Positions 18,775 through 50,920 are shown, counted from the first letter of the stretch. The stretch is DNA of 64,000 bases from a virus (IMGVR_UViG_3300042453_003743:64001-128000); one strand, 5' to 3'. Program-made: numbers and translations. The notes: a model not told the origin generated them from the letters alone.

Positions 18775-18847
18775 GACCGTAGTATACACTAGCCCCTCTG
18801 CGGTGTCAAGAGGCTAGGTGAAGTTTTTACACCTACATGCAAAGTCC

Positions 18848-18885: not shown

Positions 18886-18928
18886 CCCCCCACCCCCGGA
18901 GGGGCGAGGGGTTGATGCGGTATGCCGA

Positions 18929-19225: not shown

Positions 19226-19292
19226 GCCTGCATGATAGCACAAGCGTTCTAGCGTGTCAAGTGACTTCTGACTCTTTCTGCGGGGGCTAGAC

Positions 19293-19330
19293 TTGACAAA
19301 GCGAAAGTGTTGTGGTACAATCTACTTGGT
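19293..19330 (+). promoter_or_regulatory. gene-less sigma70 promoter
   Basis: TTGACA-N17-TACAAT-CTACTTGGT, then A-tract and AGTCCGATAAC. Confidence 0.75.
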
Positions 19331-19467
19331 TGAATAAAATAAAAACTTGTTGTGAGTCCGATAACCAAGGGTGCGCCCATGCCCTTGACAGCGGTGGAGG
19401 GGTGTGGTAAACTCGGCGCATCGGGCCGTGTGGCCCTACTCACCACCTCTCTCTAGGAGAACGACAG

Positions 19468-19860
19468 ATGACCTGCACCACCCCCTGCCTCCCCGGTTTT
19501 GAGTCCATCCTCGCCGCCTCCCCGGCCCCCGTCAACTCCGCCGCCACGACCCGTCGCCGTGGCCGCTCCGGCCCCCGGGGCGTCCTCTACACCGTCTCCA
19601 CGGAGGAGTCGGCCCTCGGGCCTTGGGTCCACCGTGAGATCAGCGCGCAAGTGTGGCCCAACGGACGGGGCCAGCGTGTTGCCCGCATTCGGATGCAGGC
19701 CAACGCCTCGGACAGGATCGGCTACTCCTTCGGCATGGTCACCGTGACCGACACCAACGGTACGCCCATCTGCATCGGCATGGACAAGGAGCAGATGCGG
19801 TCGGTCGGTGCCGCCCTCCTCGCCGCAGCGAACTCCGCCCGCGCCAAGTGGCGCAAGTGA
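19468..19860 (+). CDS. early hypothetical protein
   Basis: AGGAG SD; TTGACA-N17-TAAACT promoter near 19385. Confidence 0.75.
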   Translation: MTCTTPCLPGFESILAASPAPVNSAATTRRRGRSGPRGVLYTVSTEESALGPWVHREISAQVWPNGRGQRVARIRMQANASDRIGYSFGMVTVTDTNGTPICIGMDKEQMRSVGAALLAAANSARAKWRK

Positions 19861-19935
19861 GGACCGGACAGAGAGGGGAGGGGTCGCATGACCCCTCCCC
19901 TTGACACTCGCACCACCATCGGATACAATACGCCC

Positions 19936-20118
19936 ATGAAGAACAGCACCACCGAACTCCGCTTCCTCTCCGCCATGCTCTGGCTCTCATCCTTCGCGGG
20001 CACCGCGCTCTGCGTGAACTGGGCGATGGATGGGCACTACCTCCTGTCCGCTTTCACAGGTCTACTGGTTCTGGGCTGCGGATGCCTGATCGCCCATGTT
20101 CACTACCTGCGGAAATAA
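19936..20118 (+). CDS. small two-TM membrane protein (leaderless)
   Basis: Two hydrophobic segments; TTGACA-N17-TACAAT-N6-ATG. Confidence 0.7.
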   Translation: MKNSTTELRFLSAMLWLSSFAGTALCVNWAMDGHYLLSAFTGLLVLGCGCLIAHVHYLRK

Positions 20119-20168
20119 ATCTTCCGGCATCACTTGACACTCGCACCACCAACGGATACAATACACCC

Positions 20169-20447
20169 ATGAAGCGCACCACCACCAAAGACCTGATTGA
20201 TTCCATCCGCACCCTCAACCGCGAGTTGGGCTTCCCCGATGATGGAGGCACCGCCCTGGGCCTCGGTTCGATTCCCGGTTCGTTCTGCCTCTCGGGAGCC
20301 TACGGAGGCTGGCAGATTCAGCGATTCGTCGGACAGGGTTTGGAGTCCGTCACCACCGGATACCGCCCAAAGCGGCAAGTCCGGGAACTAGTAGAGGCAA
20401 TGGTGCAGGGTGTGCGCCTGCACCGCGCCTACCAGATGATCGCATAA
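20169..20447 (+). CDS. early hypothetical protein (leaderless)
   Basis: Promoter nearly identical to the previous one; LSGAYGGWQI motif. Confidence 0.75.
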   Translation: MKRTTTKDLIDSIRTLNRELGFPDDGGTALGLGSIPGSFCLSGAYGGWQIQRFVGQGLESVTTGYRPKRQVRELVEAMVQGVRLHRAYQMIA

Positions 20448-20520
20448 CGAGGTGGTGCTCGTCAACCGAAGAGGCTAACGCCCTGCCCCGGATGTTCCGG
20501 GGCTAGGTTTTTTTATTGGC
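20447..20520 (+). ncRNA. structured 3' element, copy 1 (hairpin + multistem junction + U-tract)
   Basis: Near-identical to 21842-21915 with compensatory stem changes. Confidence 0.6.
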
Positions 20521-20522
20521 AG

Positions 20523-20635
20523 TTGACACCTGCAAACGCCCGTGGTACAATCTACTTGGTTCACAAATGTATTGTTATTCTCTTTTTCCCACAGCCGACC
20601 AAGTATATTCTACCATGAGGGTATTGCGGTGTCAA
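20523..20635. promoter_or_regulatory. face-to-face pair of gene-less sigma70 promoters
   Basis: Plus: TTGACA-N17-TACAAT-CTACTTGGT (20523-20560). Minus: TTGACA-N17-TAGAAT-ATACTTGGT (20635-20598). Confidence 0.75.
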
Positions 20636-20713
20636 GTCGAGTTATCGGTCTGTGTATAACTTTGATTGTTGGGGTCACTTGACACCGTGGCGCGGGTGTG
20701 GTATCATCATTGC

Positions 20714-21277
20714 ATGAGCACCACTCACACCAACCGTTTCGAAACCGTTCGCACCCTTGCCATCGGCAACTTCATCAACCTACTGACCCGCGCCACGGAG
20801 GCCGATCACCAAGCCGCCAGCGCATGGTACAATGACGCGCAGGCGTTCGCTAACTCGCTCCGCCCCATCACCGGATGGAACCTTGAGGTGGCCGCTAGCG
20901 TCGTGTCAGCCTTCTCGCCCCGCGTCACTTGGGGCCACAACAAGGCGAAGGCGCTCCAGTATGCGCAGGGCATCACGCCGAAGGGGCTGGGCTCCCATGT
21001 CGCTGCGGCGGATCGCTGCGTGGCGGACGGGTTCAACGGGCTGCGCGGGCTCAAGACGAACGCATTCGCCCGTGCCATTGCCGGGGACACGCAGGCCGTC
21101 GTGGTGGATGTGTGGATGTGCCGTGCTGCGGGGCTCGGGAAGGACGCTCCGAACAAGACGGAATATCGGGCAATCGCGGACGCGATCCGCACCATCGCAT
21201 CCACGCGGGTCGTGAACATGGAACCCGCCACGCTTCAGGCTCTCCTGTGGATCATCATCCGGGGGAAGGCGGAGTAA
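20714..21277 (+). CDS. HhH-glycosylase-like protein (DUF7178-like), early copy (leaderless)
   Basis: AWY, SAFSPR..W..N, GLKTNAF..AI, VVVDVW and LQALLW motifs; TTGACA-N17-TATCAT-N6-ATG. Confidence 0.75.
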   Translation: MSTTHTNRFETVRTLAIGNFINLLTRATEADHQAASAWYNDAQAFANSLRPITGWNLEVAASVVSAFSPRVTWGHNKAKALQYAQGITPKGLGSHVAAADRCVADGFNGLRGLKTNAFARAIAGDTQAVVVDVWMCRAAGLGKDAPNKTEYRAIADAIRTIASTRVVNMEPATLQALLWIIIRGKAE

Positions 21278-21324
21278 TCCGCCACCCCCTTGACAGGCCG
21301 CACCCCATAGAGTATACTACACCC

Positions 21325-21570
21325 ATGACCAACACCACCACCGAAACCCCCATCGACTACAGAACCGACCCCCGTTACAAGTACGCCTTCGCATACGGAG
21401 TCCTCTCGCATTGCATGACCGTCGTTGCCGAACTGGTCGAACGGTCCAAGCGTGAGGGGGAGATGATCGACCCCAACAACCCGGACCTGAAGTGGGCCAT
21501 CACCCAGTTCAAGATCGCAGACGACAATCTCCACACAGACTCCCAGCACACAAGGTACAATACGCCATGA
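21325..21570 (+). CDS. early hypothetical protein (leaderless)
   Basis: TTGACA-N17-TATACT-N6-ATG (MTNTTTE...). Confidence 0.7.
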   Translation: MTNTTTETPIDYRTDPRYKYAFAYGVLSHCMTVVAELVERSKREGEMIDPNNPDLKWAITQFKIADDNLHTDSQHTRYNTP

Positions 21571-21842
21571 GCACCACCAACTGGCACAAGCATTTCGGTT
21601 CCGCTATGGACTCGGATCGAACCGTGGAATGCGTTCAATGCGGTTCTTCCATGATCGGAGATGGCCCTGCACAGCCCGTCATCTGCACCGAATGCTACAA
21701 CCACTCGGGCATCATCCTGCGGGATCGGGTGATCTGCATGGAGTGTGCCTCTGAAGTTCTGGAACACGGAACGCTAGTCACCCCCGACACTCACCCCGAT
21801 GGGTTCACTTGCGCGGATTGTGGGGAAACTTCAACGATCTAA
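21567..21842 (+). CDS. early multi-CxxC zinc-finger protein
   Basis: CVQC, CTEC, CMEC and CADC; ATGA overlap; TACAAT upstream. Confidence 0.7.
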   Translation: MSTTNWHKHFGSAMDSDRTVECVQCGSSMIGDGPAQPVICTECYNHSGIILRDRVICMECASEVLEHGTLVTPDTHPDGFTCADCGETSTI

Positions 21843-21915
21843 CGAGGTGGTGCTCGTCAACCGAAAAGGATTCGTCCCTGCCCCGATTCGTTCGGGGCTA
21901 GGTTTTTTTATTGGC
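21842..21915 (+). ncRNA. structured 3' element, copy 2
   Basis: See copy 1 at 20447. Confidence 0.6.
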
Positions 21916-21917
21916 AC

Positions 21918-21955
21918 TTGACATCGGACAGGATGTATGGTAGAATCTACTTGGT
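21918..21955 (+). promoter_or_regulatory. gene-less sigma70 promoter
   Basis: TTGACA-N17-TAGAAT-CTACTTGGT, then A-tract. Confidence 0.75.
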
Positions 21956-22028
21956 GAACAAAACAAAAATGATTTCTCTCATCACGCACCCCCTTGACAC
22001 CCGTGGCCGTTCGTGATACAATGGGTCC

Positions 22029-22394
22029 ATGACACCACTCAACCACATCCCCAACCGAACCGATTCCTGCATCATGCTCATCGAGTCCATCCGCATGGCT
22101 CACTCCGACCTCTCATGCACGAAGGCCAACCCGGAAGAAACCAATGCGGCCCTCGCTTTCTGCGAGATCGCCGTCAGCATCCCCCCGTCGTGGTTCACGC
22201 ATGAGGAGCGCATCATGGTCAAGGAAACCATCGACACGCTCTACGGTGACGCTCTGAAGTTCATCATCGACCTCGACGGAGGACACGTTTCCTTCATCAA
22301 CAAGTGCAACAACCTCTGCCACGGGCGTTCGTTGGAGTCGTTCGTGGATGTGATGATGCGGCAGCACATGGCGGAGTTTGGATCGGTAGCCTGA
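22029..22394 (+). CDS. early hypothetical protein (leaderless)
   Basis: TTGACA-N17-TACAAT-N6-ATG; hairpin at 22401-22432. Confidence 0.75.
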   Translation: MTPLNHIPNRTDSCIMLIESIRMAHSDLSCTKANPEETNAALAFCEIAVSIPPSWFTHEERIMVKETIDTLYGDALKFIIDLDGGHVSFINKCNNLCHGRSLESFVDVMMRQHMAEFGSVA

Positions 22395-22490
22395 AGGTGA
22401 AGTCCACCCCCCGGCCAACGCCGGGGGGTGGACGGATAGTAGTCACTACTGATAGTAGACCCCCGATAATATTTCAATAATATTTGGGAC

Positions 22491-22528
22491 TTGACACGCC
22501 GGGATGGTCATGATACAATCGTCTTGGA
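22491..22528 (+). promoter_or_regulatory. gene-less sigma70 promoter (variant)
   Basis: TTGACA-N17-TACAAT-CGTCTTGGA, flanked by CCGATAAT sites. Confidence 0.65.
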
Positions 22529-22610
22529 CGACATTCAAAACAGAGTCCGATAATAAAAAAGATGGACGAGATGGCTTGACACGGACGGGGTGGCATGGTA
22601 GAATGCCAAC

Positions 22611-22841
22611 ATGAACAACCCCAACAACTACAACGACGACGACGCTGAATACTCCGACCTCATGCCCTACGACGATGCGTTCACCGACGAGGACTTCGTT
22701 CAGGAACTCATTGACGAGGGATACAGCGAGGATGAGGCCCGCCGCATGGTTGGCGAGTACGACGCCAACGAATACTACGGCATTGACGAGGACAACGACC
22801 GGGATGTTCCCGACTTCGTTGACGATGGAGACTTCGAATGA
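22611..22841 (+). CDS. hyper-acidic early protein (leaderless)
   Basis: About 29 D/E in 76 aa, 3 Arg, no Lys; TTGACA-N17-TAGAAT-N6-ATG. Confidence 0.75.
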   Translation: MNNPNNYNDDDAEYSDLMPYDDAFTDEDFVQELIDEGYSEDEARRMVGEYDANEYYGIDEDNDRDVPDFVDDGDFE

Positions 22842-23212
22842 ATGTAAGAATCATTCGGAGCGACAGGCCGACCACCAGCAAAAGGTGGGTCAAAAGACGA
22901 ATCAACGAAACCCTTCGGGGAATCTTCTTTGCATCAGCCGTCATCAGCACGAAGGACTCTGGAAAGAGTTGTAATGGAATGTCAGTAGACATTCACCCTT
23001 TCCCGACCGGAACGATCATTTTCGATGTCCAACTGGGAACGGACTGGACCCGAAAGGGAGTTGAAGCATTCTTGCGCTACATGGAGCAGTCGAACGGTGT
23101 AGTGAGCGTGACCTTGACAACCACAACCGACTCTGATACAATCCACCCATGCGAAAGCCACCCAACCACCGACCCGACCGACCGACCACTTGCGACTTCA
23201 GCGACTTGCTGA
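22838..23212 (+). CDS. hypothetical protein
   Basis: ATGA coupling with GGAG SD; 3' end overlaps next promoter and ORF. Confidence 0.5.
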   Translation: MNVRIIRSDRPTTSKRWVKRRINETLRGIFFASAVISTKDSGKSCNGMSVDIHPFPTGTIIFDVQLGTDWTRKGVEAFLRYMEQSNGVVSVTLTTTTDSDTIHPCESHPTTDPTDRPLATSATC

Positions 23213-23391
23213 ACGAGGTCGCCAAGTTCACCGAAACCAACCCCCTGTGGTTTGAGAACCCGGAGGACTTGGCGCGAATGGCAAGAGCCTACGGCATCAT
23301 CACGATGATGAGTGGACCGGATTCATGCACGGAGGATGAGTGCGAATACATCCTCAACCTTCACCGCACCCTTCAGGAGAACCACAAGTGA
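23149..23391 (+). CDS. early hypothetical protein (leaderless)
   Basis: TTGACA-N17-TACAAT-N6-ATG. Confidence 0.7.
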   Translation: MRKPPNHRPDRPTTCDFSDLLNEVAKFTETNPLWFENPEDLARMARAYGIITMMSGPDSCTEDECEYILNLHRTLQENHK

Positions 23392-23756
23392 ACCCCACCA
23401 ACAAGTTTGACGGATTCTTCAGCGGGAACGGAGAAATCCCGCAGAATGTGGAGATGCGACCCCCCACGGTGCCGATGATGGTTCACACCCTCATCGTCCT
23501 GACCGGAACCACGCCGGAGTGGTACAAGAACGAGAAGAACCGCATCATTGCCTGCTCGTTCTTGGAGGCCATTGCCGATGGGGTCAAGGAGTTCAGGGAC
23601 GGGAAGGAGAAGGATTCTCCGATCTCCCTCTCCGAAGCCGCGTTCCTGATGATGACCTCCGAGATTCTGTTCGCCACGCAGCAGTTCGCCTCCGACGAGG
23701 AGCGCGAGCGTTGGCCTGACCGACCGGACACCGTGAGCGACGAGGACGAGGAGTGA
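23388..23756 (+). CDS. hypothetical protein
   Basis: GTG start, AGGAG SD, GTGA overlap. Confidence 0.7.
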   Translation: MNPTNKFDGFFSGNGEIPQNVEMRPPTVPMMVHTLIVLTGTTPEWYKNEKNRIIACSFLEAIADGVKEFRDGKEKDSPISLSEAAFLMMTSEILFATQQFASDEERERWPDRPDTVSDEDEE

Positions 23757-23794
23757 CTTGACAACCCGCGCCCATCGGGTACAATGGGCATCCC

Positions 23795-23867
23795 GCCTCT
23801 GTAGCGCAGTTGGTAGCGCAGTTGACTTTTAATCAATTGGTCGTGGGTTCGAACCCCACCGGAGGCA
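23795..23867 (+). tRNA. tRNA-Lys(UUU)
   Basis: Cloverleaf GCCTCTG...CGGAGGC-A; loop CTTTTAA; GTTCGAAC; own promoter at 23758. Confidence 0.95.
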
Positions 23868-23869
23868 TT

Positions 23870-24136
23870 ATGAAAGACAACGAAATCCTAATTCACGCAC
23901 TCACGGAGTCAGACAAACTGCAAATAATTTTTGCAGAACTCATGGAGTTTTGGTTGGAGGGAAAGGAACCTCCCACTTGGTTGGTTGATCAGTACTACGA
24001 CCAACTGGAAGAAGTTCAGGTGGCTTTCAGCGCCGACAAGTTGCATGAGGTCGTGGCGCAGAAGAACCGAGACTTCTACGACGACCTTCAAAATAAACTT
24101 GAAGGCTTGCTTGACAACACCCCGGACTTGTTCTAG
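23870..24136 (+). CDS. acidic hypothetical protein
   Basis: ATG 2 nt after tRNA-Lys; GGAGG lies inside the tRNA 3' strand. Confidence 0.7.
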   Translation: MKDNEILIHALTESDKLQIIFAELMEFWLEGKEPPTWLVDQYYDQLEEVQVAFSADKLHEVVAQKNRDFYDDLQNKLEGLLDNTPDLF

Positions 24137-24147
24137 AATGGGGTCAC

Positions 24148-24220
24148 GGCACGGTAGACCAACGGCAGAGTCAATTGACTCAAAATCAATAAAGTGTGGG
24201 TTCGAATCCCACCCGTGCTA
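24148..24220 (+). tRNA. tRNA-Leu(CAA) with short variable loop
   Basis: GGCACGG...CCGTGCT-A; ATTGA-CTCAAAA-TCAAT; 5-nt variable region; GTTCGAAT. Confidence 0.88.
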
Positions 24221-24325
24221 CTAAAATAGAGGCGGATCTTCTTCAAGACCGTCCAAGTTGAGAAGGTGAAAGTCTGACGAGTCCGATTCTTTGTAATCGT
24301 AGTGCAGTAAAGTAGCCTTCGACTT

Positions 24326-24399
24326 GTTCCCGTAGCCCAGTTGGATAGAGCAGCCGCCTTCTAAGCGGCAGGTCGCTGGTTCGAATCCAGCCGGGAACG
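24326..24399 (+). tRNA. tRNA-Arg(UCU)
   Basis: GTTCCCG...CGGGAAC-G; loop CTTCTAA; GTTCGAAT. Confidence 0.95.
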
Positions 24400-24541
24400 C
24401 TTGACAAGAAAGGAAACGGTGCTACAATGCTGTACATGAACACCCCAAAGAGTATATTATAAGTTTTGGCGGTGGTTCAAACAAACCGCATAGAGGCAAC
24501 CTACGGTTGCACGGTTCGCAGAGCCGTACAACTCTGCATAC

Positions 24542-24617
24542 GGAAGGGTGGCTGAATCGTAGTTAGAGCGCATGCCTTATAAGCGTGAATATGTGGGTGC
24601 AACTCCCGCCCCTTCCA
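24542..24617 (+). tRNA. tRNA-Ile(UAU), atypical
   Basis: GGAAGGG...CCCTTCC-A; CATGC-CTTATAA-GCGTG; T-loop TGCAACT. Confidence 0.8.
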
Positions 24618-24640
24618 CTTCCCCCAACCAAAGGAACGAG

Positions 24641-24847
24641 ATGGATCTCAACAAGATCAGAGAGTGCTTGACAACGTTGGAAGACTTCGCCGCCATTCTT
24701 GATGATGGCATGGCTCCTGTCACGCAGGAGGAGATCGAAATCATGGCAGAGGAACTTCCCAAGATCATCTCCACTCTCAAGAAGGAAACCGATGTCAGCA
24801 CGGGCACCGATATGTACGTCAAGTACAGCGGCTTCTGTGACGGCTAA
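24641..24847 (+). CDS. hypothetical protein
   Basis: AAGGA SD; MDLNKIRE start. Confidence 0.65.
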   Translation: MDLNKIRECLTTLEDFAAILDDGMAPVTQEEIEIMAEELPKIISTLKKETDVSTGTDMYVKYSGFCDG

Positions 24848-24898
24848 AAGTTTTTGTTTTTTGCTTGACAACCCCCAACCACAAGGTACAATAGACAC

Positions 24899-25180
24899 AT
24901 GAACTTCGACTTCAACAACATCGCCCTGATCGCCCTCTCGCTCTTTGCCGGATACTTCGGCCTCGCCTACATGAAGGCCCGCTTTGAGGACAGGATGCGC
25001 GCCTACACGCAGCGCATGGATGATCTTCAGACTTGGTTCGACCGTGAGAACGAGCGCATCATGGATCGGATTCGGACTCTTGATGTCCGCGTGAATGATC
25101 TCCGTTTCAACTACGAGACTCACGCCGAATGCAAGAGCAAGTACCCGGCGGAGAAGAACTACTACAACACGGAAGTCTAA
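24899..25180 (+). CDS. membrane-anchored coiled-coil protein (leaderless)
   Basis: N-terminal TM; TTGACA-N16-TACAAT-N6-ATG. Confidence 0.75.
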   Translation: MNFDFNNIALIALSLFAGYFGLAYMKARFEDRMRAYTQRMDDLQTWFDRENERIMDRIRTLDVRVNDLRFNYETHAECKSKYPAEKNYYNTEV

Positions 25181-25205
25181 ATCCGCTCTAGACTTCCTCT
25201 CATAC

Positions 25206-25240
25206 CAGAGAGCCCCGCAATGGGCTCTCTGTTTTTATTT
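25206..25240 (+). terminator. intrinsic terminator
   Basis: CAGAGAGCCC-cgcaat-GGGCTCTCTG-TTTTTATTT. Confidence 0.8.
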
Positions 25241-25305
25241 TGACAGTAATCTACTGATAGTAGTTTTGGATCGGATAGTAGTCCGATAACTAGGCGGCAC
25301 TCGGC

Positions 25306-25343
25306 TTGACAAGTGGAAGGTGATGTGGTACAATCATATTGGT
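25306..25343 (+). promoter_or_regulatory. gene-less sigma70 promoter
   Basis: TTGACA-N17-TACAAT-CATATTGGT, preceded by GATAGTAGT x2 and AGTCCGATAAC. Confidence 0.7.
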
Positions 25344-25423
25344 GGACAATATAAAAATGGATATTTCAAAATATTTGCGATAGGGTACTTGACACCCCAA
25401 AAAGATTGTGGTACAATGTTCGC

Positions 25424-26695
25424 ATGAACAGCAACATCGACCGCCGCAAGCAGAAGTTCCTCAAGGCTCTCACCGACCTGTACGGAGTCCCATCCTCCAT
25501 CGGTGAGGCACGGTACACCCGTGAGCAGTGCATCAACGCCTTCCACAACACTTACAAGGTGTCGCCCAACGACAACTACAGCACCCTCCCGGCTTGGATC
25601 GTGCAAGACAAGTCCCGTCGCCTTGGCCGGGGACTCTACAACATTCCCGAAACGGTTGTCCTGACCGACGCCATCGAACCCGAAAATGTTTACGAAACTT
25701 CAGGACAGGATTTGACACCACAGGAAACTTGTGGTAGAATGGAAACCATGAACAGCAGCAACTACAACCTCGTCATGCCGTCCAACGATGTTTCCCTCGT
25801 CCCCGTCAAGAACGAAACTTTCGTTCCGTGGGGACACTACGAGGACATCAATGCCATCCTCGCCTCCAAGCAGTTCGCTCCGGTCTACATCACGGGTCTG
25901 TCGGGCAACGGCAAGACCACGATGATCGAACAGGTCTGCGCGAACACCGGACGGGAGTGCATCCGTGTCAACATCACCGCCGAAACCGACGAGGATGACC
26001 TGATCGGTGGGTTCCGCCTCATCAACGGCGAAACCAAGTTCGTGTTCGGTGGAGTCGTGCAGGCCATGCAGCGTGGCGCAATCCTCCTGTTGGACGAGAT
26101 CGACTTGGGAACGGAGCGCATGATGTGCCTTCAGCCCGTGCTTGAGGGCAAGGGTGTCTACATCAAGAAGATCGGAATGTTCGTCAAGCCCGCTCCCGGC
26201 TTCAATGTGGTCGCCACCGCCAACACGAAGGGCAAGGGCGAGTCTGATCGGTTCGTCGGCACCCGCTGCATGAACGAGGCGTTCCTTGACCGCTTCTCCT
26301 ACTGGTTTGAGCAGGAGTACGCTGATAGGGTGGTGGAGGCCCGCATCATCATCCGCAAGATGAAGGCGTATGGCAAGGAGGACAAGGACTTCGCGCAGTA
26401 CCTCGTCAAGTGGGCGGAAACGATCCGCTTGGGCTTCAAGGAGGGCGGCTTGGATGACATCATCACGACCCGTCGCTTGGAGGAGGTCTGCAAGGCGTTC
26501 GCCATCTTCAACGACAAGGAGAAGGCGATCAAGTTGACTCTCACCCGGTTCGACCCGGCTACGCAGGAGGCGTTCTACAACCTCTACACCAAGATCGACC
26601 CGACCATCCTTCCGCCTGTGGACGGGATGGACAAGGAGAAGCAGGCCGTTCCCGCTCCCTCCCCGTCTGACACCAACTACGCAATCAACGCCTAA
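25424..26695 (+). CDS. MoxR/CobS-like AAA+ ATPase
   Basis: Walker A GLSGNGKT, Walker B LLLDEID, DEDDLIGG, ATANTKG and NEAFLDRF; leaderless promoter. Confidence 0.9.
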   Translation: MNSNIDRRKQKFLKALTDLYGVPSSIGEARYTREQCINAFHNTYKVSPNDNYSTLPAWIVQDKSRRLGRGLYNIPETVVLTDAIEPENVYETSGQDLTPQETCGRMETMNSSNYNLVMPSNDVSLVPVKNETFVPWGHYEDINAILASKQFAPVYITGLSGNGKTTMIEQVCANTGRECIRVNITAETDEDDLIGGFRLINGETKFVFGGVVQAMQRGAILLLDEIDLGTERMMCLQPVLEGKGVYIKKIGMFVKPAPGFNVVATANTKGKGESDRFVGTRCMNEAFLDRFSYWFEQEYADRVVEARIIIRKMKAYGKEDKDFAQYLVKWAETIRLGFKEGGLDDIITTRRLEEVCKAFAIFNDKEKAIKLTLTRFDPATQEAFYNLYTKIDPTILPPVDGMDKEKQAVPAPSPSDTNYAINA

Positions 26696-26712
26696 CAAAA
26701 AGGAAAAAGAAA

Positions 26713-26937
26713 ATGCCTTACATGAACAAGCGCAATCGTTTCGTCGCAGCCGCCAAGCAGTACGCGGATGCCAACCTCAACGGCGACTACAGCAACTTCA
26801 AGAAGTCTGACCTCCTCACGGTCGCACAGTCGATCAACATGAAGGGGACTCCGACTTGGGTTGTCAAGGAGTACGCAAGCGCGGTGAGCCGTGGCGTCTA
26901 CGACCTGACGAGCCTGATCGCTCCTGTGACTGTCTGA
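26713..26937 (+). CDS. small protein homologous to the N-terminal domain of the AAA ATPase
   Basis: PTWVV...SRGVYDL vs PAWIV...GRGLYNI; AAGGA SD. Confidence 0.7.
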   Translation: MPYMNKRNRFVAAAKQYADANLNGDYSNFKKSDLLTVAQSINMKGTPTWVVKEYASAVSRGVYDLTSLIAPVTV

Positions 26938-27011
26938 TGCTGTTCTGATGTGGGGTGGGGCAATCGGCCCCACCCCTTGACAAGACGCACCACCTGTGGT
27001 AGAATACCGAC

Positions 27012-29252
27012 ATGAACACTTCTCTCTCCATCTTCGCCCGCGCTCTCGCAACCGAAAACCTCTCGTTCTCGTTCGATGCCAACGCAGACACCGCATCGTT
27101 CGACACCAAGAGCCGTCACCTCGTCATGCCCGTGTGGGATGTCTCCGACACCCTTCAGACCATGCTTGTCGCCCATGAGATCAGCCACGCCCTGTGGACT
27201 CCCCATGAGCGCAGTCAGGAGTTGCTGACGCAGGCGGAGAAGGACGGCTACTGCATCAAACTCCTCCACCACATTGCGAATGTCATTGAGGATGTCCGCA
27301 TTGAGAAGTTGATGAAGGCCAAGTACCCCGGCACCCGCAGAGACTTCTTCTTGGGCTACAAGGAGATCGTGGATGCCGACCTGTTCAAGTTCAAGTCGAT
27401 GGACTTGAAGAACACCAACATCATCAACCGACTCAACCTCCACTTCAAGTGGGGTGTCCCCGGCTTCCTGCCCATCGACCTCAACGCGGACGAGAACGAG
27501 ATCGCCATGTTGGTCGATGCCGTTCAGACCTTCGATCAGGGGTTTGAGTTGGCAAAGCACCTCTACAAGCATCCTTCCATGAAGGATATGCGCGAGAAGT
27601 ACGAGGCGCAGGCTGAAAAGCAGAAGAAGTCCTCCGGCACGGACGGGGATCAGGATGATGACGGCACGATGTCGCAGACTGATCTTTCGGACAGCAATCT
27701 TGGCATGGTCGATATGCCCTGTGAGTTCGGTCGCAAGAACGGCGAGAAGTTCCACGCCACGACCCTGACCATCAGCCCGGTGGTCAAGATCGAAAACAAC
27801 ATCATCACCACCGACGAGATGCTTGAGTCCTACGAGGACGCGATCATCGGAAACCCGTATGGGAATCCCACGCTTGACTTGACCAACTACCGCTCCTTCG
27901 TCAAGGAGTCCGATGCGTTCGTTCGCCAGTTGGTCGCGCAGTTTGAGCGTCGCAAGGCTGCGGACGAGATTCGCCGTGAGCGGCCCAAGCAGACCGGGAT
28001 GCTGAACCTTGACCGCCTCCACCAGTTCCGCACCCACGATGACATCTTCCTGTCCAAGATCATCAAGCAGGACGGCAAGAATCACGGCATCGTGTTCTTG
28101 ATCGACTTCTCCGGGTCTATGACCACCGTGCTTGACCATTGCATCCTTCAGGTGTTCCAGTTGGTTTGGTTCTGCGAGAAGGCCAAGATTCCGTTTGAGG
28201 TGTTCGGCTTCACCAACATGAACCTGATCGGCAACCGTGGCAAGGAGGAGGATGAGCGGCACCGCAAGTTCTGCCGCCAACACTCCATTGAGGAGCGGTA
28301 TGTTCCGCTGTACCCCACCGAAACGCAGAACCCTCGCCCGGACAGCATTGTGTGCGGCAACACCCGGCTCATTTCGTTGGCTTCGTCGGCTGATTCGCCT
28401 GCCAAGCGTGAGCGTCTGCTTGCCTTTATCTACGAGTCCTCCGTGCAGCGTACTCGCAGTCAGGTGTTCTCGCTTGGTGGTACTCCGACCGTGGAGGCCA
28501 TGATCCTCACCACTCAATACATGAAGAAGTGGGTGCAGGACAACAATGTGCAGATTCCGACCCTGATGCTCGTCACCGATGGACAGCCCAACGGTGTCTC
28601 GTTGGACCCGACCTCGCCCATGTATTCGGATGTGCCGTATCAGATTCGGGAGAATATGTCCCTCATGGTCCGCAACGACATCCTTCAGACCATGACCCGC
28701 ATCGACAACAAGGAACACGACGGCATGGGCTTGGGCAATGTGGTGGTGTCCGTGATGCTTGATGATCTTCGTCAGACGATGAACGCGAGGACTGTCGGTA
28801 TGTATGTGGGTGGTCGCACCTTCAACGATTCGCTCTACCGTGGCTTCTGCCTTCTGCCGCAAGACCATGAGCAGATGGACAGGATCATTGAGCAGGCACG
28901 AAAGAATGGAGATTGGAGAGCGACGATAAGCCTCCGCGAAAGCCCCCGCTACGAGATGGCTCAACAGCAGTACATGAGTGAGGGGTGCATCATCCTCCCC
29001 ACCGTGAGCAACCCCGGCTACGATGCCTTCTTCCTCATCAAGACTCCCAAGATCGTCAAGGACGAGGAGGCGATTGTGGAGAGCGGAACCTTCGTCAAGG
29101 TGAAGAACACCTTCGTCAAGACGATGGGCAAGAGAGCCGGGAGCCGTGTGTTCCTCTCCAAGTATGTTGACATCGTGGCGGGTCAGCCTGTGCCAAAGAA
29201 CGGGGGCAAGTTGTACGACCTCCCCGCCCACAACGGACTTGAAAGAAAGTAA
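27012..29252 (+). CDS. CobT-like metallopeptidase (HEXXH) + von Willebrand A domain protein
   Basis: AHEISHALWT, NVIEDVRIE, MIDAS DFSGS, GGTP and LVTDG; leaderless promoter. Confidence 0.88.
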   Translation: MNTSLSIFARALATENLSFSFDANADTASFDTKSRHLVMPVWDVSDTLQTMLVAHEISHALWTPHERSQELLTQAEKDGYCIKLLHHIANVIEDVRIEKLMKAKYPGTRRDFFLGYKEIVDADLFKFKSMDLKNTNIINRLNLHFKWGVPGFLPIDLNADENEIAMLVDAVQTFDQGFELAKHLYKHPSMKDMREKYEAQAEKQKKSSGTDGDQDDDGTMSQTDLSDSNLGMVDMPCEFGRKNGEKFHATTLTISPVVKIENNIITTDEMLESYEDAIIGNPYGNPTLDLTNYRSFVKESDAFVRQLVAQFERRKAADEIRRERPKQTGMLNLDRLHQFRTHDDIFLSKIIKQDGKNHGIVFLIDFSGSMTTVLDHCILQVFQLVWFCEKAKIPFEVFGFTNMNLIGNRGKEEDERHRKFCRQHSIEERYVPLYPTETQNPRPDSIVCGNTRLISLASSADSPAKRERLLAFIYESSVQRTRSQVFSLGGTPTVEAMILTTQYMKKWVQDNNVQIPTLMLVTDGQPNGVSLDPTSPMYSDVPYQIRENMSLMVRNDILQTMTRIDNKEHDGMGLGNVVVSVMLDDLRQTMNARTVGMYVGGRTFNDSLYRGFCLLPQDHEQMDRIIEQARKNGDWRATISLRESPRYEMAQQQYMSEGCIILPTVSNPGYDAFFLIKTPKIVKDEEAIVESGTFVKVKNTFVKTMGKRAGSRVFLSKYVDIVAGQPVPKNGGKLYDLPAHNGLERK

Positions 29253-29267
29253 GTAATATTAGGTACG

Positions 29268-29308
29268 CCCCCACCAGGAAGGAGAGAGCCTGGTGGGGGT
29301 TTTCTTTT
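29268..29308 (+). terminator. intrinsic terminator
   Basis: CCCCCACCAGG...CCTGGTGGGGG-TTTTCTTTT. Confidence 0.8.
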
Positions 29309-29397
29309 GTCAAGAACAAAAATTATTATTTCCAGAAAATAATAATTTTGATAGTAGTACTGATAGTACTCGGATCGGATAGTAGTTATTTGGACGC

Positions 29398-29504
29398 ACC
29401 AAGTATATTGTACCATGCCGGATTCCCGGTGTCAAGCCCCCCTGTTATCGTCTTATCGGACTCCCCTTGACAAACTTCCGACCCCGTGGTACAATCGTAT
29501 TGGT
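29398..29504. promoter_or_regulatory. back-to-back pair of gene-less sigma70 promoters
   Basis: Minus: TTGACA-N17-TACAAT-ATACTTGGT (29435-29398). Plus: TTGACA-N17-TACAAT-CGTATTGGT (29467-29504). Confidence 0.75.
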
Positions 29505-29519
29505 GGACAAAATAATTGA

Positions 29520-30206
29520 ATAGTTTATCAGACTTAGAACACAGGCCGGTGCTCAGAGGGTTATCGGACTTGTATTCAATTGCTTGACAACCCCTATATC
29601 TGGTGTATAGTTACCAGACTGTTCATGCGACTGATAACCCCCCAGCCCCCTGTGAGTACTGATCGTTATGGGGCGGGGGGTTATCGGGCGTTATTCTACC
29701 TGATTATTACCGGTCTGTCCCTCCTGGTTATATACTGGGCGGTTATCGGACTTGGAAAAATTATTCAGAATAATAACGGACAGGATTCAGAGGGACAGGA
29801 TCCAGGAAAGACGGCTCACTACTATCAGGGCGGGGTCCTCCAGATGCTCAGATACGCCAGGTCCCTCCCCACAGATTAAAAATAATAATTTCCGGACAGG
29901 ATTGAAACGGACATCCAGGAAACACCTGGACAGGATTCAAATTGTCGGACAGGATTGAGAAATTGTTAAAATTTCTCAAAATTTGTCAAATTTCTTTGAA
30001 AATTTGTAATTATTTGCTTGACAGCCTATAATGCCCTATAAGGCGTCGGTTTAAAAGAGGGCTCGGAGGGGTCTTTAAGGACTTGGAGGGGCTTGGAGGG
30101 CATTGTAAGACGATTAAAGGGGTGTTAGAGGGTGGGTCTGTAACTCCAAATTTCTCAAATATTCTTCAATATTCTTTACCCCACTCACTCCCACTCTCCC
30201 CCACCT
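29520..30206. repeat. non-coding repeat-rich region (GTTATCGG, GGACAGGAT x5, GGAGGG runs)
   Basis: Direct reading; no convincing ORF. Confidence 0.65.
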
Positions 30207-30644
30207 TTACCCCTCATTGACAGGCTCAATATTCTCCATATCAGCCTTATCAATAACATAGGCTGGTATGGTTTTCTTTCCTTCTATTGAGTGTGCTTTC
30301 TTTATTCTATTCAACCCGTCTGTAATCGAAATAGTACCGTCTTCCTGCCTTATGCCCAATACGGGTACGCTGGTATCAGCCTTTTCCATTCTTTTCTTGT
30401 GTTGAGGATTATCCATGTCATATTGCTTGTCCCACCATTCCAAAGCGTCTGTTTCTTTGATGGGCAAATCTTTTACGAAAAATTCTTTCTTTGATTTGGC
30501 GAAATCGTAGATGTCCTTGACTCGGTACTTCTTCCCAGTCTCGTCATTGGTGGCGATTTGTTGATCCCAATTTTCTACCTGTCCCTTCTTGGGCGTGTCG
30601 AGGTAGGGGTCATAATTTTCTAAAAATTGTTTGAAATTTTTCAT
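30207..30644 (-). CDS. ParB/sulfiredoxin-like N-terminal domain protein
   Basis: ADTSVPVL...ITDGLNRIKKA; starts MKNFKQFLE. Confidence 0.7.
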   Translation of the reverse strand: MKNFKQFLENYDPYLDTPKKGQVENWDQQIATNDETGKKYRVKDIYDFAKSKKEFFVKDLPIKETDALEWWDKQYDMDNPQHKKRMEKADTSVPVLGIRQEDGTISITDGLNRIKKAHSIEGKKTIPAYVIDKADMENIEPVNEG

Positions 30645-31186
30645 TCTTTGGTTCCGTGTATGATTCCATGTTCGATTCTGGCATTTGGGAAAACTTTTCT
30701 GACTTCTGGTAGATGGGCTGCGGTAGTCATGTTGTTCTGCCATGAATCTTTCTTTGTTTGCTTGCCCTGACCTGTTCTATCCCCTTCGTAAATGGAAATA
30801 AAGATTCTTCCACCGGGCTTGAGGGTTGAGTGTGCGGTTTTCAGGGCTTCGTGTCTGTATTCGGGTTCCTTGATGACATTCAGCACATTGAACAGAGATG
30901 CGCTGTCTGCCCCTTCCTTACCCACTTCCTGCATGACCTTCGTATTGTGTTCTTCCGGGCGGTTGAAGGGATCAAAGACATGAGCCTTGACTCCCAATTT
31001 TTCTAAAAATTCCACGGCGTTGTCAAACTTTCCGCCTCCGATGTCAATGTGCGTAGTGTCGGGCTTCCATCCCATTTTTCTGTGTATGGTGGTGTAGGCT
31101 TCGGGGAGTTTGGTCTTGTTGATGCTGGTTGCGGCAGAGGTGAACTCTTGGGCATCCTCAACAAGGAAATTTTTGAAACTTTTCAT
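30641..31186 (-). CDS. class I SAM-dependent methyltransferase
   Basis: HIDIGGGK, FDPFN, NVLNVI and LKPGG motifs; starts MKSFKNFLVE; ATAAATA promoter. Confidence 0.8.
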   Translation of the reverse strand: MKSFKNFLVEDAQEFTSAATSINKTKLPEAYTTIHRKMGWKPDTTHIDIGGGKFDNAVEFLEKLGVKAHVFDPFNRPEEHNTKVMQEVGKEGADSASLFNVLNVIKEPEYRHEALKTAHSTLKPGGRIFISIYEGDRTGQGKQTKKDSWQNNMTTAAHLPEVRKVFPNARIEHGIIHGTKE

Positions 31187-31243
31187 CAATCTATTTATGA
31201 GTCGAATGCTTGACACTCTTGGGTAATGGGGTATAGTTAACCC

Positions 31244-31516
31244 ATGCGAAACGAAAAGACTACCGCTGGGAACAAGGCCGCACAGGAGTTTCTGAAGGAT
31301 CAGAGCATCGCTGACCTCAAGGCCGAGATCATTCGTCTGAATGACAAGATTCATGCCATGCGCTCCGTTTTGTGGGAGTGGAATGTCTCGTCCGGGCCTG
31401 TGTGGGAATATTGGAAGTTGGCAAAGGTTGGAGAAACCGCCGAGGACTATTCCCATTGGACCGAGGACTATTTTGATTCTGACGACGACATCCCCCTTCC
31501 CCCCGAACAGGAGTAA
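31244..31516 (+). CDS. hypothetical protein (leaderless)
   Basis: TTGACA-N16-TATAGT-N6-ATG. Confidence 0.7.
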   Translation: MRNEKTTAGNKAAQEFLKDQSIADLKAEIIRLNDKIHAMRSVLWEWNVSSGPVWEYWKLAKVGETAEDYSHWTEDYFDSDDDIPLPPEQE

Positions 31517-31518
31517 AC

Positions 31519-31704
31519 ATGACTACCAAAATGAAAAAGAAAAAGACTACACCCGTAAAGACTCTTAAACTTTTCCCCGAGGCTGGTGTGTTGGGTCTGC
31601 TGACCGACGTTGCCATCACCTCCATGATGCTTGGCGTTGCGTTCATGATGCTTCTGCTTTGCTTGCAGATGGCCGAGAAAGTAACCATCACCTTTGGAAA
31701 GTAA
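31519..31704 (+). CDS. small membrane protein
   Basis: AGGAG SD; basic N-terminus plus TM segment. Confidence 0.6.
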   Translation: MTTKMKKKKTTPVKTLKLFPEAGVLGLLTDVAITSMMLGVAFMMLLLCLQMAEKVTITFGK

Positions 31705-31709
31705 ATCAC

Positions 31710-32123
31710 ATGAACAAGACAATCGCTACCAAATGGGTCAAGGCTCTTCGTTCAGGAAAGTATAAACAAGGTGACAATTATCTTTGTCAGATCAGCAGCA
31801 AGGGCATAAAGCACTGCTGCTTGGGTGTGCTGACGGAGATTTATCAGACCGAGCAGATAGCAAAGAAGAAAAAGACTCTTCCGGCAAAAATTGTCAAGAT
31901 GTATAAGAATGCCCCATTCGATGTCGTAAAGTATGGCAATGGCAAGAGTTCTGCCGAGGAACTTCCCCTCGCTGTTCAGCGTTGGGCTGACATGGATGGC
32001 AGACTTGGAGAGTTTGATGATGAAGGTGCTGGCGACTTTGGAAGCCTGTCACACATGAATGATGCTGGCTACTCGTTCAAGAAAATTGCCAACTTCATCG
32101 AAAAGAACTACGAGAATCTTTAA
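31710..32123 (+). CDS. conserved phage hypothetical protein
   Basis: KWVKALRSGKYKQG...HCCLGV...MND.GYSF..IA.FI motif. Confidence 0.75.
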   Translation: MNKTIATKWVKALRSGKYKQGDNYLCQISSKGIKHCCLGVLTEIYQTEQIAKKKKTLPAKIVKMYKNAPFDVVKYGNGKSSAEELPLAVQRWADMDGRLGEFDDEGAGDFGSLSHMNDAGYSFKKIANFIEKNYENL

Positions 32124-36420: not shown

Positions 36421-37269
36421 TTATTTTAAGCTTAAAGATTCATCTTGGCGGGATTTGATATATTCATTCATTTTATCCAAGTACCCAAGATTTCTCAATT
36501 CTTTAAAAATTAAATTTTCAACAGAATTTTCACCTGATTTTTTCAGAGATGAATTTCTCATATCTTTTATCTTGGTTTTAATTTTTTCAAAAGATTCATC
36601 TTCTGCGCTGCTGTTTATAAGATTGTCTATTTTTTGGGTAAAATAATCTACCTTTGTTTTGATAAGAGGATCTTCTAAATTCACCTCTTCTTGTTTTGGA
36701 TGCTGTATCCAATCGTTGCTTGTGAGACTGAAAACTCCTTGACCAGTTGGAGTTGGATCATCTTTTCCTTGTGCGTAAAGCTCTACATCGTGGCCATAAA
36801 TTTTAATATCATGTATTTGTGCCCATAGCTGCTTTTTATCTTTTAGATACTCATCTAGTAAATCTGGACAATCTGGCATTTTTTCTTTGTCAATTAATAC
36901 GTGAACATCAATATCAGAATAATCTGTATAGTTAAAATTTGCATTACCGCCCACCATTATAATATCTACAATTGCTTCCTCTGGGATTTGTGCAAACTCG
37001 GCCCAAGTTTTTCCTATTTCTAGAAGTTTATCTTTGACTTCTTGTTTCAACATATCTTTATCCCACAGTTTTTGATTTAATTCATTGTGGTATTGGAGAG
37101 TTAAAGAAGAAGCCTCTTCAAGATGTTCTTTGAAAGTCTTTCTTTTCTTTTTTGAAATTTCAATAGCTGCAAGCTGGTCTACAGCTTCTTCTTTGCTATA
37201 GTGTGTTCCGAGAAGTTTTTCACCAGAAGAATCTCTGACTTCCCATTTGTTTCCGCGCTTTACAATCAT
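36421..37269 (-). CDS. Pol-beta-superfamily nucleotidyltransferase
   Basis: GGNANFNYTDYSDIDVH, DVELYAQ and ENLIFKELR motifs. Confidence 0.8.
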   Translation of the reverse strand: MIVKRGNKWEVRDSSGEKLLGTHYSKEEAVDQLAAIEISKKKRKTFKEHLEEASSLTLQYHNELNQKLWDKDMLKQEVKDKLLEIGKTWAEFAQIPEEAIVDIIMVGGNANFNYTDYSDIDVHVLIDKEKMPDCPDLLDEYLKDKKQLWAQIHDIKIYGHDVELYAQGKDDPTPTGQGVFSLTSNDWIQHPKQEEVNLEDPLIKTKVDYFTQKIDNLINSSAEDESFEKIKTKIKDMRNSSLKKSGENSVENLIFKELRNLGYLDKMNEYIKSRQDESLSLK

Positions 37270-37285
37270 GAAGATATTTATCCAA

Positions 37286-37456
37286 TAAAAAACCCGGTTT
37301 TTCAGATGCGGGAAAACCGGGAAACCCCACTGCTTTAAGCAGCCATCCGCATTGGTGCGGCTTTTATATTTGCAACTGTTTATTTACGACACTTGTTACC
37401 CGTGTCGGGTATCTCCTTCTTCATTACTCTGCGCCAATCGAAGCCAGTTCAGCCCC
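37286..37456 (-). ncRNA. ssrA: permuted tmRNA, coding piece
   Basis: Starts GGGGCTGAACTGGCTTCGA; pk1 TACCC-GACAC-GGGTA/GTGTC; tag ORF 37373-37335 ANIKAAPMRMAA*; terminal hairpin plus T-tract. Confidence 0.85.
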
Positions 37457-37553
37457 GTATTGATCTAAAGCCTAGGACTTTAGATCGTGCCCCGCTGTAA
37501 CGAGGACTTGTTTCGCCGTCTCCAGAGTTTACAGTAGCTCTAGGTTAGGCTAA

Positions 37554-37615
37554 TGGAGCCGAGGGGAATCGAACCCCTGTCTTGTCGCATTTCAATCCGA
37601 GATCAACAATACCGA
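37554..37615 (-). ncRNA. ssrA: permuted tmRNA, acceptor piece
   Basis: GAC-AGGGG-TTCGATT-CCCCT-CGGCTCC-A; pairs with GGGGCTG giving G3-U70; 5' boundary approximate. Confidence 0.85.
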
Positions 37616-37617
37616 AA

Positions 37618-37697
37618 GCGTAGCGAGGGGCCTGCACCCATGCTCAATCACCGTTTGCAACCAATGATCCTAGTCAGCATCACACACTGAACTACGC
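37618..37697 (-). ncRNA. non-canonical tRNA-like cloverleaf (GCA in central loop)
   Basis: GCGTAGT/GCTACGC closing stem plus three hairpins. Confidence 0.5.
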
Positions 37698-37712
37698 ATG
37701 TAGATTATTTAG

Positions 37713-37795
37713 TGCGAGCAGAAGGATTCGAACCTTCGTAGGCTGCAGCCAACAGATTTACAATCTGCCCTCGTTGTCCACTTGAGTATACTCGC
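37713..37795 (-). tRNA. tRNA-Tyr(GUA)
   Basis: GCGAGTA...TGCTCGC-A; loop TTGTAAA; long variable arm; TTGACT-N16-TATACT promoter. Confidence 0.93.
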
Positions 37796-37870
37796 AACGA
37801 TTACAGTATATCTCAACACACTTTCAAGTCAATTAATTGACTTATCTTTTTTAAAGTATATACTATTATC

Positions 37871-50317: not shown

Positions 50318-50920
50318 TTATTTAGGCTCTGGAGGAACCTTATAATTTTCTAAAGGATTATAGAGTTTTAAATTTTTGTAAGATTTTGCCTTACCAACAG
50401 CCAATTTTCTAAGATTGGCGTAATCTAAGTTATTTTCTTTAGCAAAATCAGAAATACTGGGTATGTTCAAAATTTGACCACTTTTAATATCAACAAACAC
50501 AGCACCCATTTTTATCGGTATTTTATTTCGTTTTTCTTCTTTTGCCTTTTCATGAGATCCAGTGCCGTCTTTTACTGATCTTAATTCTACCGCTGTCCAT
50601 CCTTTATATGTTTTTCTTTTTCCATTTAACAATTCACAAATTTTTACAGCAGAAAGACCATGAAGTTTTCCAAACTCTGTCATATTTTCAAAAAATACTT
50701 TTTCTTCGGTATCAACTTTTTTTAACCAGTATCCGTTTTTTTCTTTTACTGGGCTATTCCAAAACCAGTATCCATCTTTTTCTAAAAAAAATCCGCCATG
50801 TTTATTCAAAAACATGGCTCTCATCTTTTTTGCTTTGGAATTGTCATTCATCTGCATCCAAAGTTTTGTTCCTTTTGTATTCACTGCATCTTCTAATGTT
50901 TTTTGTTCATAATATTTCAT
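50318..50920 (-). CDS. NUMOD1/intron-endonuclease-type DNA-binding repeat protein
   Basis: Two F.k.h.L...i..l..GK.K.YK repeats. Confidence 0.6.
   Translation of the reverse strand: MKYYEQKTLEDAVNTKGTKLWMQMNDNSKAKKMRAMFLNKHGGFFLEKDGYWFWNSPVKEKNGYWLKKVDTEEKVFFENMTEFGKLHGLSAVKICELLNGKRKTYKGWTAVELRSVKDGTGSHEKAKEEKRNKIPIKMGAVFVDIKSGQILNIPSISDFAKENNLDYANLRKLAVGKAKSYKNLKLYNPLENYKVPPEPK

Follow-up and report, generated by a model that had tools for sequence, protein, structure and literature searches.

A predicted two-piece tmRNA gene with a conserved structured spacer in an uncultured T4-like lake myovirus

A circularly permuted gene for transfer-messenger RNA (tmRNA) is located on the minus strand, at 37287-37613, of a 64,000-nucleotide (nt) stretch of viral DNA (IMGVR_UViG_3300042453_003743:64001-128000; “the window”, from whose first base all positions are counted). 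Judged by its sequence, conserved fold and relatives, it is very probably a functional two-piece ssrA gene of an uncultured T4-like lake myovirus. The window comprises bases 64001-128000 of a linear virus record of 137,341 bp in IMG/VR, with a CheckV completeness of 76%. The features of the gene and of its RNA cluster discussed below are all on the minus strand.

Two types of call identify the gene. ARAGORN reports a permuted tmRNA (“tmRNA*”) at 37244-37643, and the Rfam model RF04321 (tmRNA_permuted) is matched over its full length (model positions 1-213) at 37613-37335, with 81.8 bits against a gathering score of 47 and an E-value of 4.2e-14 for the 64-kb window. An earlier note on this DNA, made from the sequence alone, had proposed a phage-encoded, permuted two-piece tmRNA and had named ARAGORN and Rfam searches as checks; both calls, together with the T4-like contig and the covariation among relatives, bear out this proposal.

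The permuted gene and its conserved fold

In the permuted order, the acceptor piece (37613-37554; 60 nt), which contains the T-arm and the acceptor 3' strand, is located upstream of the coding piece (37456-37287; approximately 170 nt), and the two are separated by a spacer of 97 nt. The acceptor piece starts with the 5' strand of helix P2c (GGUAU, 37613-37609), followed by one strand of P2a (37588-37582), the T-arm AGGGG-TTCGATT-CCCCT (37578-37562, loop UUCGAUU), the acceptor 3' strand CGGCTCC (37561-37555) and the discriminator A (37554). The coding piece opens at 37456 with GGGGCTGAAC...TTCGA, including the acceptor 5' strand GGGGCUG (37456-37450), and ends in a U-tract (37292-37287). Both pieces together form an acceptor stem (P1) of 7 bp with the G3-U70 pair, as well as P2a (TTG-G-CGC, 37437-37431, with GCG-A-CAA of the acceptor piece) and P2c (AUACC, 37412-37408, with GGUAU). 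The T-arm, the acceptor strand, the spacer length, the 5' end, the 7-bp stem with G3-U70 and P2 are all found where the earlier note had placed them.

Support for this fold comes from an alignment of 26 distinct family genes (A2). In A2, 96.4% of the cells of the canonical structure are paired, compared to 37-48% when the partners are slid against each other, and 19 pairs are altered on both sides, compared to 3-7 upon sliding; the covariation score was reached by none of 500 shuffles. Compensatory change is found in P2c (4 of 5 pairs), P2a (6 of 7), the hairpin of the first pseudoknot (pk1; 4 of 6), helix 5 (1 of 5) and the second stem of the pseudoknot following the tag (4 of 9). Within A2, neither P1 nor the T-arm varies; both covary among 42 loci retrieved via the spacer core. 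In the wider family, the acceptor stem occurs as CGGCUCC/GGGGCUG, CGACUCC/GGGGUCG, CGGGUCC/GGGCCUG and UAGGUCC/GGGCCUA, and while the stem covaries, G3-U70 is retained in all 41 sequences.

Within the coding piece, pk1 (37372-37407) is composed of the hairpin CGACAC/GUGUCG (37407-37387), the loop of which (GUAAC, 37399-37395) can pair with GUUGC (37376-37372). Helix 5 (GCUGC/GCAGU, 37329-37343), which holds the stop codon UAA in its loop, is 100% paired in A2, with pair 357-367 altered on both sides in three sequences (UA to GC/CG). It is followed by a pk2-like pseudoknot (37293-37328), in which GGG (37327-37325) pairs with CCC (37312-37310) and, according to both covariation and fold, CCCGGUUUU (37321-37313) pairs with AAAACCGGG (37301-37293). 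The sequences of this second stem are wholly different between subgroups of the family; together with the U-tract, it is predicted to act as an intrinsic terminator. The earlier note had described the RNA as minimal, with about 230 nt in total and no room for pk2-4. The size holds (60 nt plus approximately 170 nt), but room for a second pseudoknot evidently exists. Since PK1 plus PK2 is the usual layout of two-piece tmRNAs according to a review (PMC3985003), a “minimal” form is ordinary for this class rather than special.

Judged by its gene content, the carrier of the gene is an uncultured T4-like lake myovirus. PHROG matches include the major head protein, portal, terminase, gp43-type polymerase, UvsX, gp32, gp41 and the clamp loader, further gp46/47 and the baseplate wedge, with gp23 and gp20 also among the T4-like families. 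The tmRNA gene itself is located in AT-rich phage DNA inside a tRNA cluster. The closest isolates are cyanomyoviruses, with amino-acid identities of 54% (capsid) and 41% (polymerase). A cyanophage host was considered and not adopted, given that no psbA was found in the 137-kb record and that the tmRNA of the cyanophage S-CRM01 is unlike that of the window.

The exact sequence recurs in lakes. Contigs with 100% identity to the window over 152-219 nt, located within 37369-37688, are present in four RNA libraries of lakes, which stem from four studies; in the examined stretch, 37200-37368 and 37794-37850 are free of contig cover, gaps that carry no evidential weight. The contig from library X2 spans both spacer junctions, that from X3 spans the acceptor/spacer junction and the boundary with the adjacent tRNA-like element, and those from X10 and X6 span the spacer/coding junction. 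Hence, the window sequence is present in RNA preparations from lakes in its unprocessed arrangement. As a side observation, a contig in X6 with a depth of ~2066 matches a 34-nt T-arm stretch (37552-37586) with three differences and is then unlike the window; it probably represents an abundant tmRNA of another organism and not of this phage.

Several observations weigh against the interpretation as a functional two-piece gene. Within pk1, the loop pairing G(U/C)AAC-GUUGC is 100% paired in the 26 sequences with one-sided changes only, and a mutually exclusive alternative, CAGUUGC with GCAUCUG (37309-37303, in the pk2 loop), is 98.7% paired and fits equally well; neither pairing shows compensatory change. 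No CCA is encoded, with UUA following the discriminator A, while the RF04321 consensus contains CCA, which function does not depend on. CCA is absent in every family member, and a CCA-less tmRNA matches the phage's own style, since none of the 10 tRNA genes of the window (23795-58893) encodes CCA. The window further fails all three lineage-specific Rfam models, which the earlier note had also named as checks: the beta model RF01850 gives 46.7 bits (gathering score 84), the cyano model RF01851 39.2 bits (70; tRNA-like domain only, model positions 50-127) and the alpha model RF01849 17.6 bits (50). The evidence for promoters is motif-based; TAAATA resembles the T4-like late promoter TATAAAT (given in PMC9004378), and the five sigma-70-like sites in the region do not differ significantly from shuffled sequences (2.9 +/- 1.9). 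In the record (76% complete), neither SmpB nor a class II CCA-adding enzyme was found. Finally, contigs from RNA libraries do not reveal transcript ends and DNA carry-over is possible, and those contigs that cover the spacer reflect a precursor arrangement rather than two pieces.

Tag frame and resume codon

Two candidate resume codons are present, GCC at 37361-37359, which we propose, and GCA at 37373-37371, which was given by ARAGORN and in the earlier note. From the former, a frame of eight codons (37335-37361; GCC GCA CCA AUG CGG AUG GCU GCU UAA, encoding AAPMRMAA) was delineated by comparison of relatives; from the latter, ARAGORN derives a tag of 12 residues for the window (ANIKAAPMRMAA). 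The comparison was based on 73 distinct segments from family loci, of which 53 were analysable and 20, lacking anchors, were left out. In all of the 53, the eighth codon before the stop is GCN, and the frame is of fixed length, starts with alanine and ends with AA-stop, with synonymous changes occurring within it. The upstream triplet is variable, being an in-frame GCA in 21 relatives, an out-of-frame GCA in 23 and GUA in 9. Since the eight-codon frame is conserved throughout, the GCA is variable and the frame starts 10-11 nt after the end of pk1 (A2), the tag of the window is probably AAPMRMAA, running from GCC 37361 to UAA 37335. The tag strings of the family do not occur in the searchable literature.

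That a functional tmRNA resumes at GCA 37373 and appends the 12-residue tag is, by comparison, unlikely. ARAGORN makes this call for the window and for three to four relatives (among the matches listed), Rfam aligns GCA 37373 with the consensus resume codon, and the triplet is in frame in the 21 relatives mentioned above. Moreover, it is preceded by an A at position -4, which is also found at -4 of the resume codon in Escherichia coli tmRNA. However, the GCA is located in the 3' strand of pk1, with its G and C paired in both structure models, and 32 of the 53 relatives have a triplet there that is either out of the conserved frame or does not encode alanine, which is at odds with the resume codon of the earlier note. 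Its distance to the GCC is not constant (12 or 13 nt in A2), and in L014-type genes no stop codon is reached from the GCA within 200 nt of the retrieved coding piece. ARAGORN itself gives AAPMRMAA for 13 near-identical relatives (among the matches listed). Because nearly identical genes thus receive ARAGORN tags of either 8 or at least 12 residues, the tags of this tmRNA family need comparative assignment.

Spacer, family and genomic neighbourhood

The spacer of the window (type I, 97 nt; 37457-37553) is predicted to fold into a helix GCC/GGC, a hairpin hp1 (37543-37522), a hairpin hpX (37505-37490) and an optional hairpin hp2 (37486-37462). The hpX loop UUACAG is complementary to the hp1 loop CUGUAA, allowing a 6-bp loop-loop pairing, for which there is one compensatory case, namely the window itself. 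Among 17 distinct spacer sequences, 94.3% of the cells are paired, compared to 33-48% with slid partners, and six pairs are altered on both sides; the minimum free energy of the spacer corresponds to z = -3.5. The spacer core is confined to tmRNA genes (42 of 42 loci). Sister genes contain either a spacer of only 6-12 nt or an unrelated type II module of 120-170 nt. The type II module is closed by GGUUAG.../...CUAACC and was seen in the family loci L042, L015, L016, L055, L102 and L208; it occurs in three tmRNA subgroups whose siblings have spacers of 6-12 nt.

Taken together, the pairing statistics characterise the spacer as a conserved folded RNA, which raises the question of why structured RNA is maintained in a supposedly discarded segment. 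A spacer RNA of either the type I (kissing-hairpin) or the type II form may control maturation of the two pieces or may be released as a third stable RNA. A known riboswitch or ribozyme was considered and rejected, given that no Rfam family matched the spacer at E <= 10 in the window region or at E <= 0.1 in 10 relatives, including those with type II modules.

The gene belongs to a family that is well represented in environmental viral sequences. The 24-base T-arm/acceptor string occurs at 117 IMG/VR loci, about 30 of which contain a clearly related permuted gene; the remaining ones are standard tmRNA ends with CCA, frequently at contig ends. The post-tag pseudoknot motif is found at at least 119 viral loci in IMG/VR, and on the 119 motif loci listed, ARAGORN calls a permuted tmRNA in 75, a standard tmRNA in none and makes no call in 44. 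For the latter (including L133, L135 and L141), possible explanations are a long insert in the spacer, a contig end or a deviating tRNA-like domain. Exact patterns of two family motifs had no match among the 185,579 species genomes of bacteria and archaea that were scanned, diverged relatives being invisible to such scans. Likewise, a blastn search of 50,697 phage records with the 400-nt gene gave no match, and neither did megablast with the surrounding 15 kb. On this sequence evidence, we regard the genes as a large, phage-only and previously unannotated family of lake T4-like phages.

The family could have branched off and diverged from the beta-type lineage, or it could go back to a permutation of its own. 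The earlier note had put forward an independent permutation lineage, and a fourth lineage that is phage-born, and not a diverged bacterial (beta-type) copy, would be in line with the window and the scanned relatives failing the alpha, beta and cyano models yet passing the general permuted one (67-88 bits with RF04321 in all 10 scanned relatives), with motifs present in at least 119 viral contigs and none of 185,579 species genomes, with the lack of an encoded CCA and with spacer modules seen solely with these genes. Against this stand the results with the beta model, which outscores the other lineage models in the window and in 8 of the 10 relatives (37-66 bits, below 84) and aligns over its full length in the window and 7 relatives, and the post-tag layout (GGGG, stem, CC-rich loop, stem), which is similar to the beta consensus. 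In L015 and L042, the sole lineage match listed is cyano, with 31.5-35 bits. Furthermore, no candidate one-piece ancestor is found, with no one-piece relative among the 119 motif loci listed and six standard tmRNAs sharing the T-arm only, and exact-pattern scans are blind to diverged bacterial relatives. With all lineage models failed, beta being nearest, and no one-piece relative found, the independent lineage of the earlier note is not supported, and we consider a fourth lineage doubtful; the joint reading, by which such a phage-born lineage turned its spacer into a functional structured RNA, is similarly tentative.

The alternative suggestion of the earlier note, according to which the tmRNA marks host identity, is of little use, given that no bacterial genome matched the family motifs (exact patterns) and that phage and host tmRNA types can disagree, as reported for phage Melnitz (PMC9004378). 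In addition, S-CRM01, in which a neighbouring gene is the closest isolate homologue of the downstream open reading frame (ORF), has a quite different, cyano-type tmRNA, making the tmRNA type an unreliable host marker.

Upstream of the tmRNA gene, the RNA cluster starts with tRNA-Tyr(GTA) (37712-37795; called by ARAGORN, 53.9 bits with Rfam tRNA), which is preceded by a weak sigma-70-like promoter match, TTGACT-16-TATACT (37805-37832; 10 of 12 matches). In the relatives L013, L047, L042, L015 and L016, tRNA-Tyr directly abuts the tmRNA gene. The late-promoter-like TAAATA of the window (37706-37711) is located 8 nt before the tRNA-like element. Of 25 distinct upstream contexts, 14 have a TAAATA terminating 5-7 nt ahead of the acceptor piece, and 5 have TACATA there. 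In 6, the window among them, TAAATA is found 92-99 nt upstream, directly ahead of the inserted tRNA-like element. Its background amounts to 0.68 per kb per strand. Both tRNA-Tyr and tRNA-Asn are directly followed by the late-promoter-like motif TAAATAA.

The tRNA-like element (37618-37697; 80 nt) can be drawn as a cloverleaf with the acceptor strands GCGUAGU/GCUACGC and an 8-nt loop, GUUGCAAA, holding UUGCAA; its D-loop is devoid of GG, and its T-loop is odd, with G replacing U55. It is called by neither ARAGORN nor Rfam, and its fold (-27.7 kcal/mol, z = -1.3) is not significant. Homologues are present in L057, L066, L035, L113 and L032 and, at another position, in L042, L015 and L016. The element may serve as a handle for processing, or it may be an unusual tRNA.

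Directly after the tmRNA terminator, a 282-aa ORF follows (36421-37269, minus strand). Its family comprises 922 phage proteins at E <= 1e-10, with homologues in S-CRM01-like cyanophages, the Caulobacter phage Cr30 and Lak phages. A weak NTP_transf_2 match (E = 0.0028) is below the cut-off, and no match was found in PDB sequences or NCBIfam. The AlphaFold model (pLDDT 81) gives weak matches to Pol-beta nucleotidyltransferases (CdnE, ANT and CCA-adding enzyme; TM 0.2-0.3). A role as a dedicated CCA-adding enzyme was considered and dropped; the ORF follows the tmRNA gene in only 13 of 137 family loci.

Elsewhere in the window, a block at ~16900-32000 has a GC content of 54-60%, compared to ~35% in the rest, and contains four tRNA genes, CobS/CobT-like genes and many short overlapping ORFs on both strands. 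A 200-aa ORF with HNH/homing-endonuclease matches (50318-50920, minus strand), flanked by an exonuclease gene and an ORF of 784 aa, may encode a free-standing homing endonuclease.

Proposed function and comparison with known systems

In the proposed route, a single precursor would be transcribed from the T4-late-type TAAATA promoter just after tRNA-Tyr, perhaps also from the upstream sigma-70-like promoter, and would comprise the tRNA-like element, the acceptor piece, the 97-nt spacer and the coding piece, ending at the intrinsic terminator. By analogy to tRNAs and to Caulobacter, host tRNA-processing enzymes would then separate the pieces, with RNase P cutting before G37456 and 3' trimming halting at A37554, while 3' processing of the tRNA-like element would generate the 5' end of the acceptor piece. 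Since neither the tmRNA gene nor the 10 tRNA genes of the window encode CCA, a CCA-adding enzyme would complete the 3' end. The pieces would be held together by P1 (7 bp), P2a (7 bp) and P2c (5 bp), charged by the host alanyl-tRNA synthetase (AlaRS) via G3-U70 and delivered to stalled ribosomes by host SmpB and EF-Tu, upon which translation would resume at GCC 37361 and append AAPMRMAA. The likely benefit is that ribosome rescue would be sustained late in infection, when host transcription is off and broken mRNAs are abundant, with the phage's own short tag determining the fate of the tagged proteins.

It is very unlikely that the RNA serves instead as a decoy, sequestering SmpB, AlaRS or ribosomes and thereby blocking trans-translation in the host. 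A precedent would be the form of phage DS6A without a coding sequence, which is reported to inhibit endogenous tmRNA in E. coli (PMC11915505), and the tag is indeed unusually short, ending in MAA instead of LAA. A decoy, however, would have no need of the eight-codon frame, of the stop codon in the helix 5 loop or of the fixed distance to pk1, all of which are kept with synonymous changes in 53 of 53 relatives, nor of the full mRNA-like domain with pk1 and pk2 that has been retained. The possibility of a host gene fragment, an attachment-site remnant or an assembly chimera devoid of any phage role, as might be suspected from the many contigs which share the 24-mer with CCA at the contig end, like prophage att sites, and from the GC-rich block elsewhere in the contig, is close to refuted by a gene that is complete with both pieces, has its place in a tRNA cluster of AT-rich phage DNA, shows conservation along with compensatory changes across dozens of T4-like contigs, has no match to its family motifs in bacterial genomes (exact-pattern scans) and recurs identically in four other lake data sets.

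For this large phage-only family of ribosome-rescue RNAs, the present gene provides a structure with good support and a revised tag. A tag of 8 residues with the end MAA, the lack of CCA and the late-type motif point to a form of trans-translation of the phage's own that would operate late in infection. General knowledge of tmRNA is left unchanged by the finding. Phage two-piece tmRNAs have been published before, and novelty, of a mild degree, is limited to how the family arose and what its spacer does.

Among bacterial systems, the betaproteobacterial two-piece tmRNA, reportedly described by Sharkady and Williams in 2004, is comparable in layout. The beta model RF01850 shares with the window the order of leader, P2, pk1, tag, helix 5 and a pseudoknot with a GGGG 5' strand. 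In contrast, the window remains below the gathering score, has no CCA, encodes a tag of 8 residues compared to ~10 in the model consensus, contains a long structured spacer and has no bacterial genome match by motif. For Caulobacter crescentus, a two-piece tmRNA is said to have been proven by experiment by Keiler, Shapiro and Williams in 2000. In common with the window are the permuted gene, a precursor cut into base-paired acceptor and coding pieces, and fewer pseudoknots; however, the alpha model scores only 17.6 of 50 bits, tag and spacer are different, and the processing shown in Caulobacter is inferred for the window.

Concerning phages, one-piece tmRNAs are reported for mycobacteriophages of cluster C1, and a form without a coding sequence for DS6A (PMC11915505); in common with the window, ssrA is phage-borne there, in large lytic phages with many tRNAs. 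While the C1 mycobacteriophages have the standard gene order (PMC11915505), the gene of the window is permuted and fails the standard one-piece model RF00023 (27.9 vs 47 bits, acceptor piece only); and while the DS6A form is described as having no tag frame (PMC11915505), that of the window is conserved.

Closer counterparts are found among aquatic myophages. Buchholz et al. (2022; PMC9004378) report tmRNA in 402 of 18,146 phage genomes, with 133 unique forms, 53 of which were called two-piece by ARAGORN and are mostly aquatic; hence, two-piece forms have a larger share in the literature than the earlier note had implied by calling described phage tmRNAs mostly one-piece. Two-piece carriers named there are the Methylophilales phage Melnitz, the Pelagibacter phages HTVC008M and Mosig, and the Synechococcus phages S-CRM01, S-CAM1, S-CAM3 and S-SSM7 (PMC9004378). 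Common to these published phages and the window are the T4-like character, an ARAGORN-permuted ssrA gene situated among tRNA genes, no phage SmpB and a proposed support or redirection of ribosome rescue (PMC9004378). The gene of the window differs from the published ones in its own sequence family and its 8-residue tag. The Melnitz gene is of the alpha type, with a host of another lineage, and is associated with a glutamine riboswitch and an early promoter (PMC9004378), whereas the window has no riboswitch match and a late-type motif. The S-CRM01 gene, finally, encodes a cyanobacterial-type tag of 19 residues (ANNVVKFRRTAVTSLVAAL) and has a spacer of 6 nt, compared to 8 residues and 97 nt in the window.

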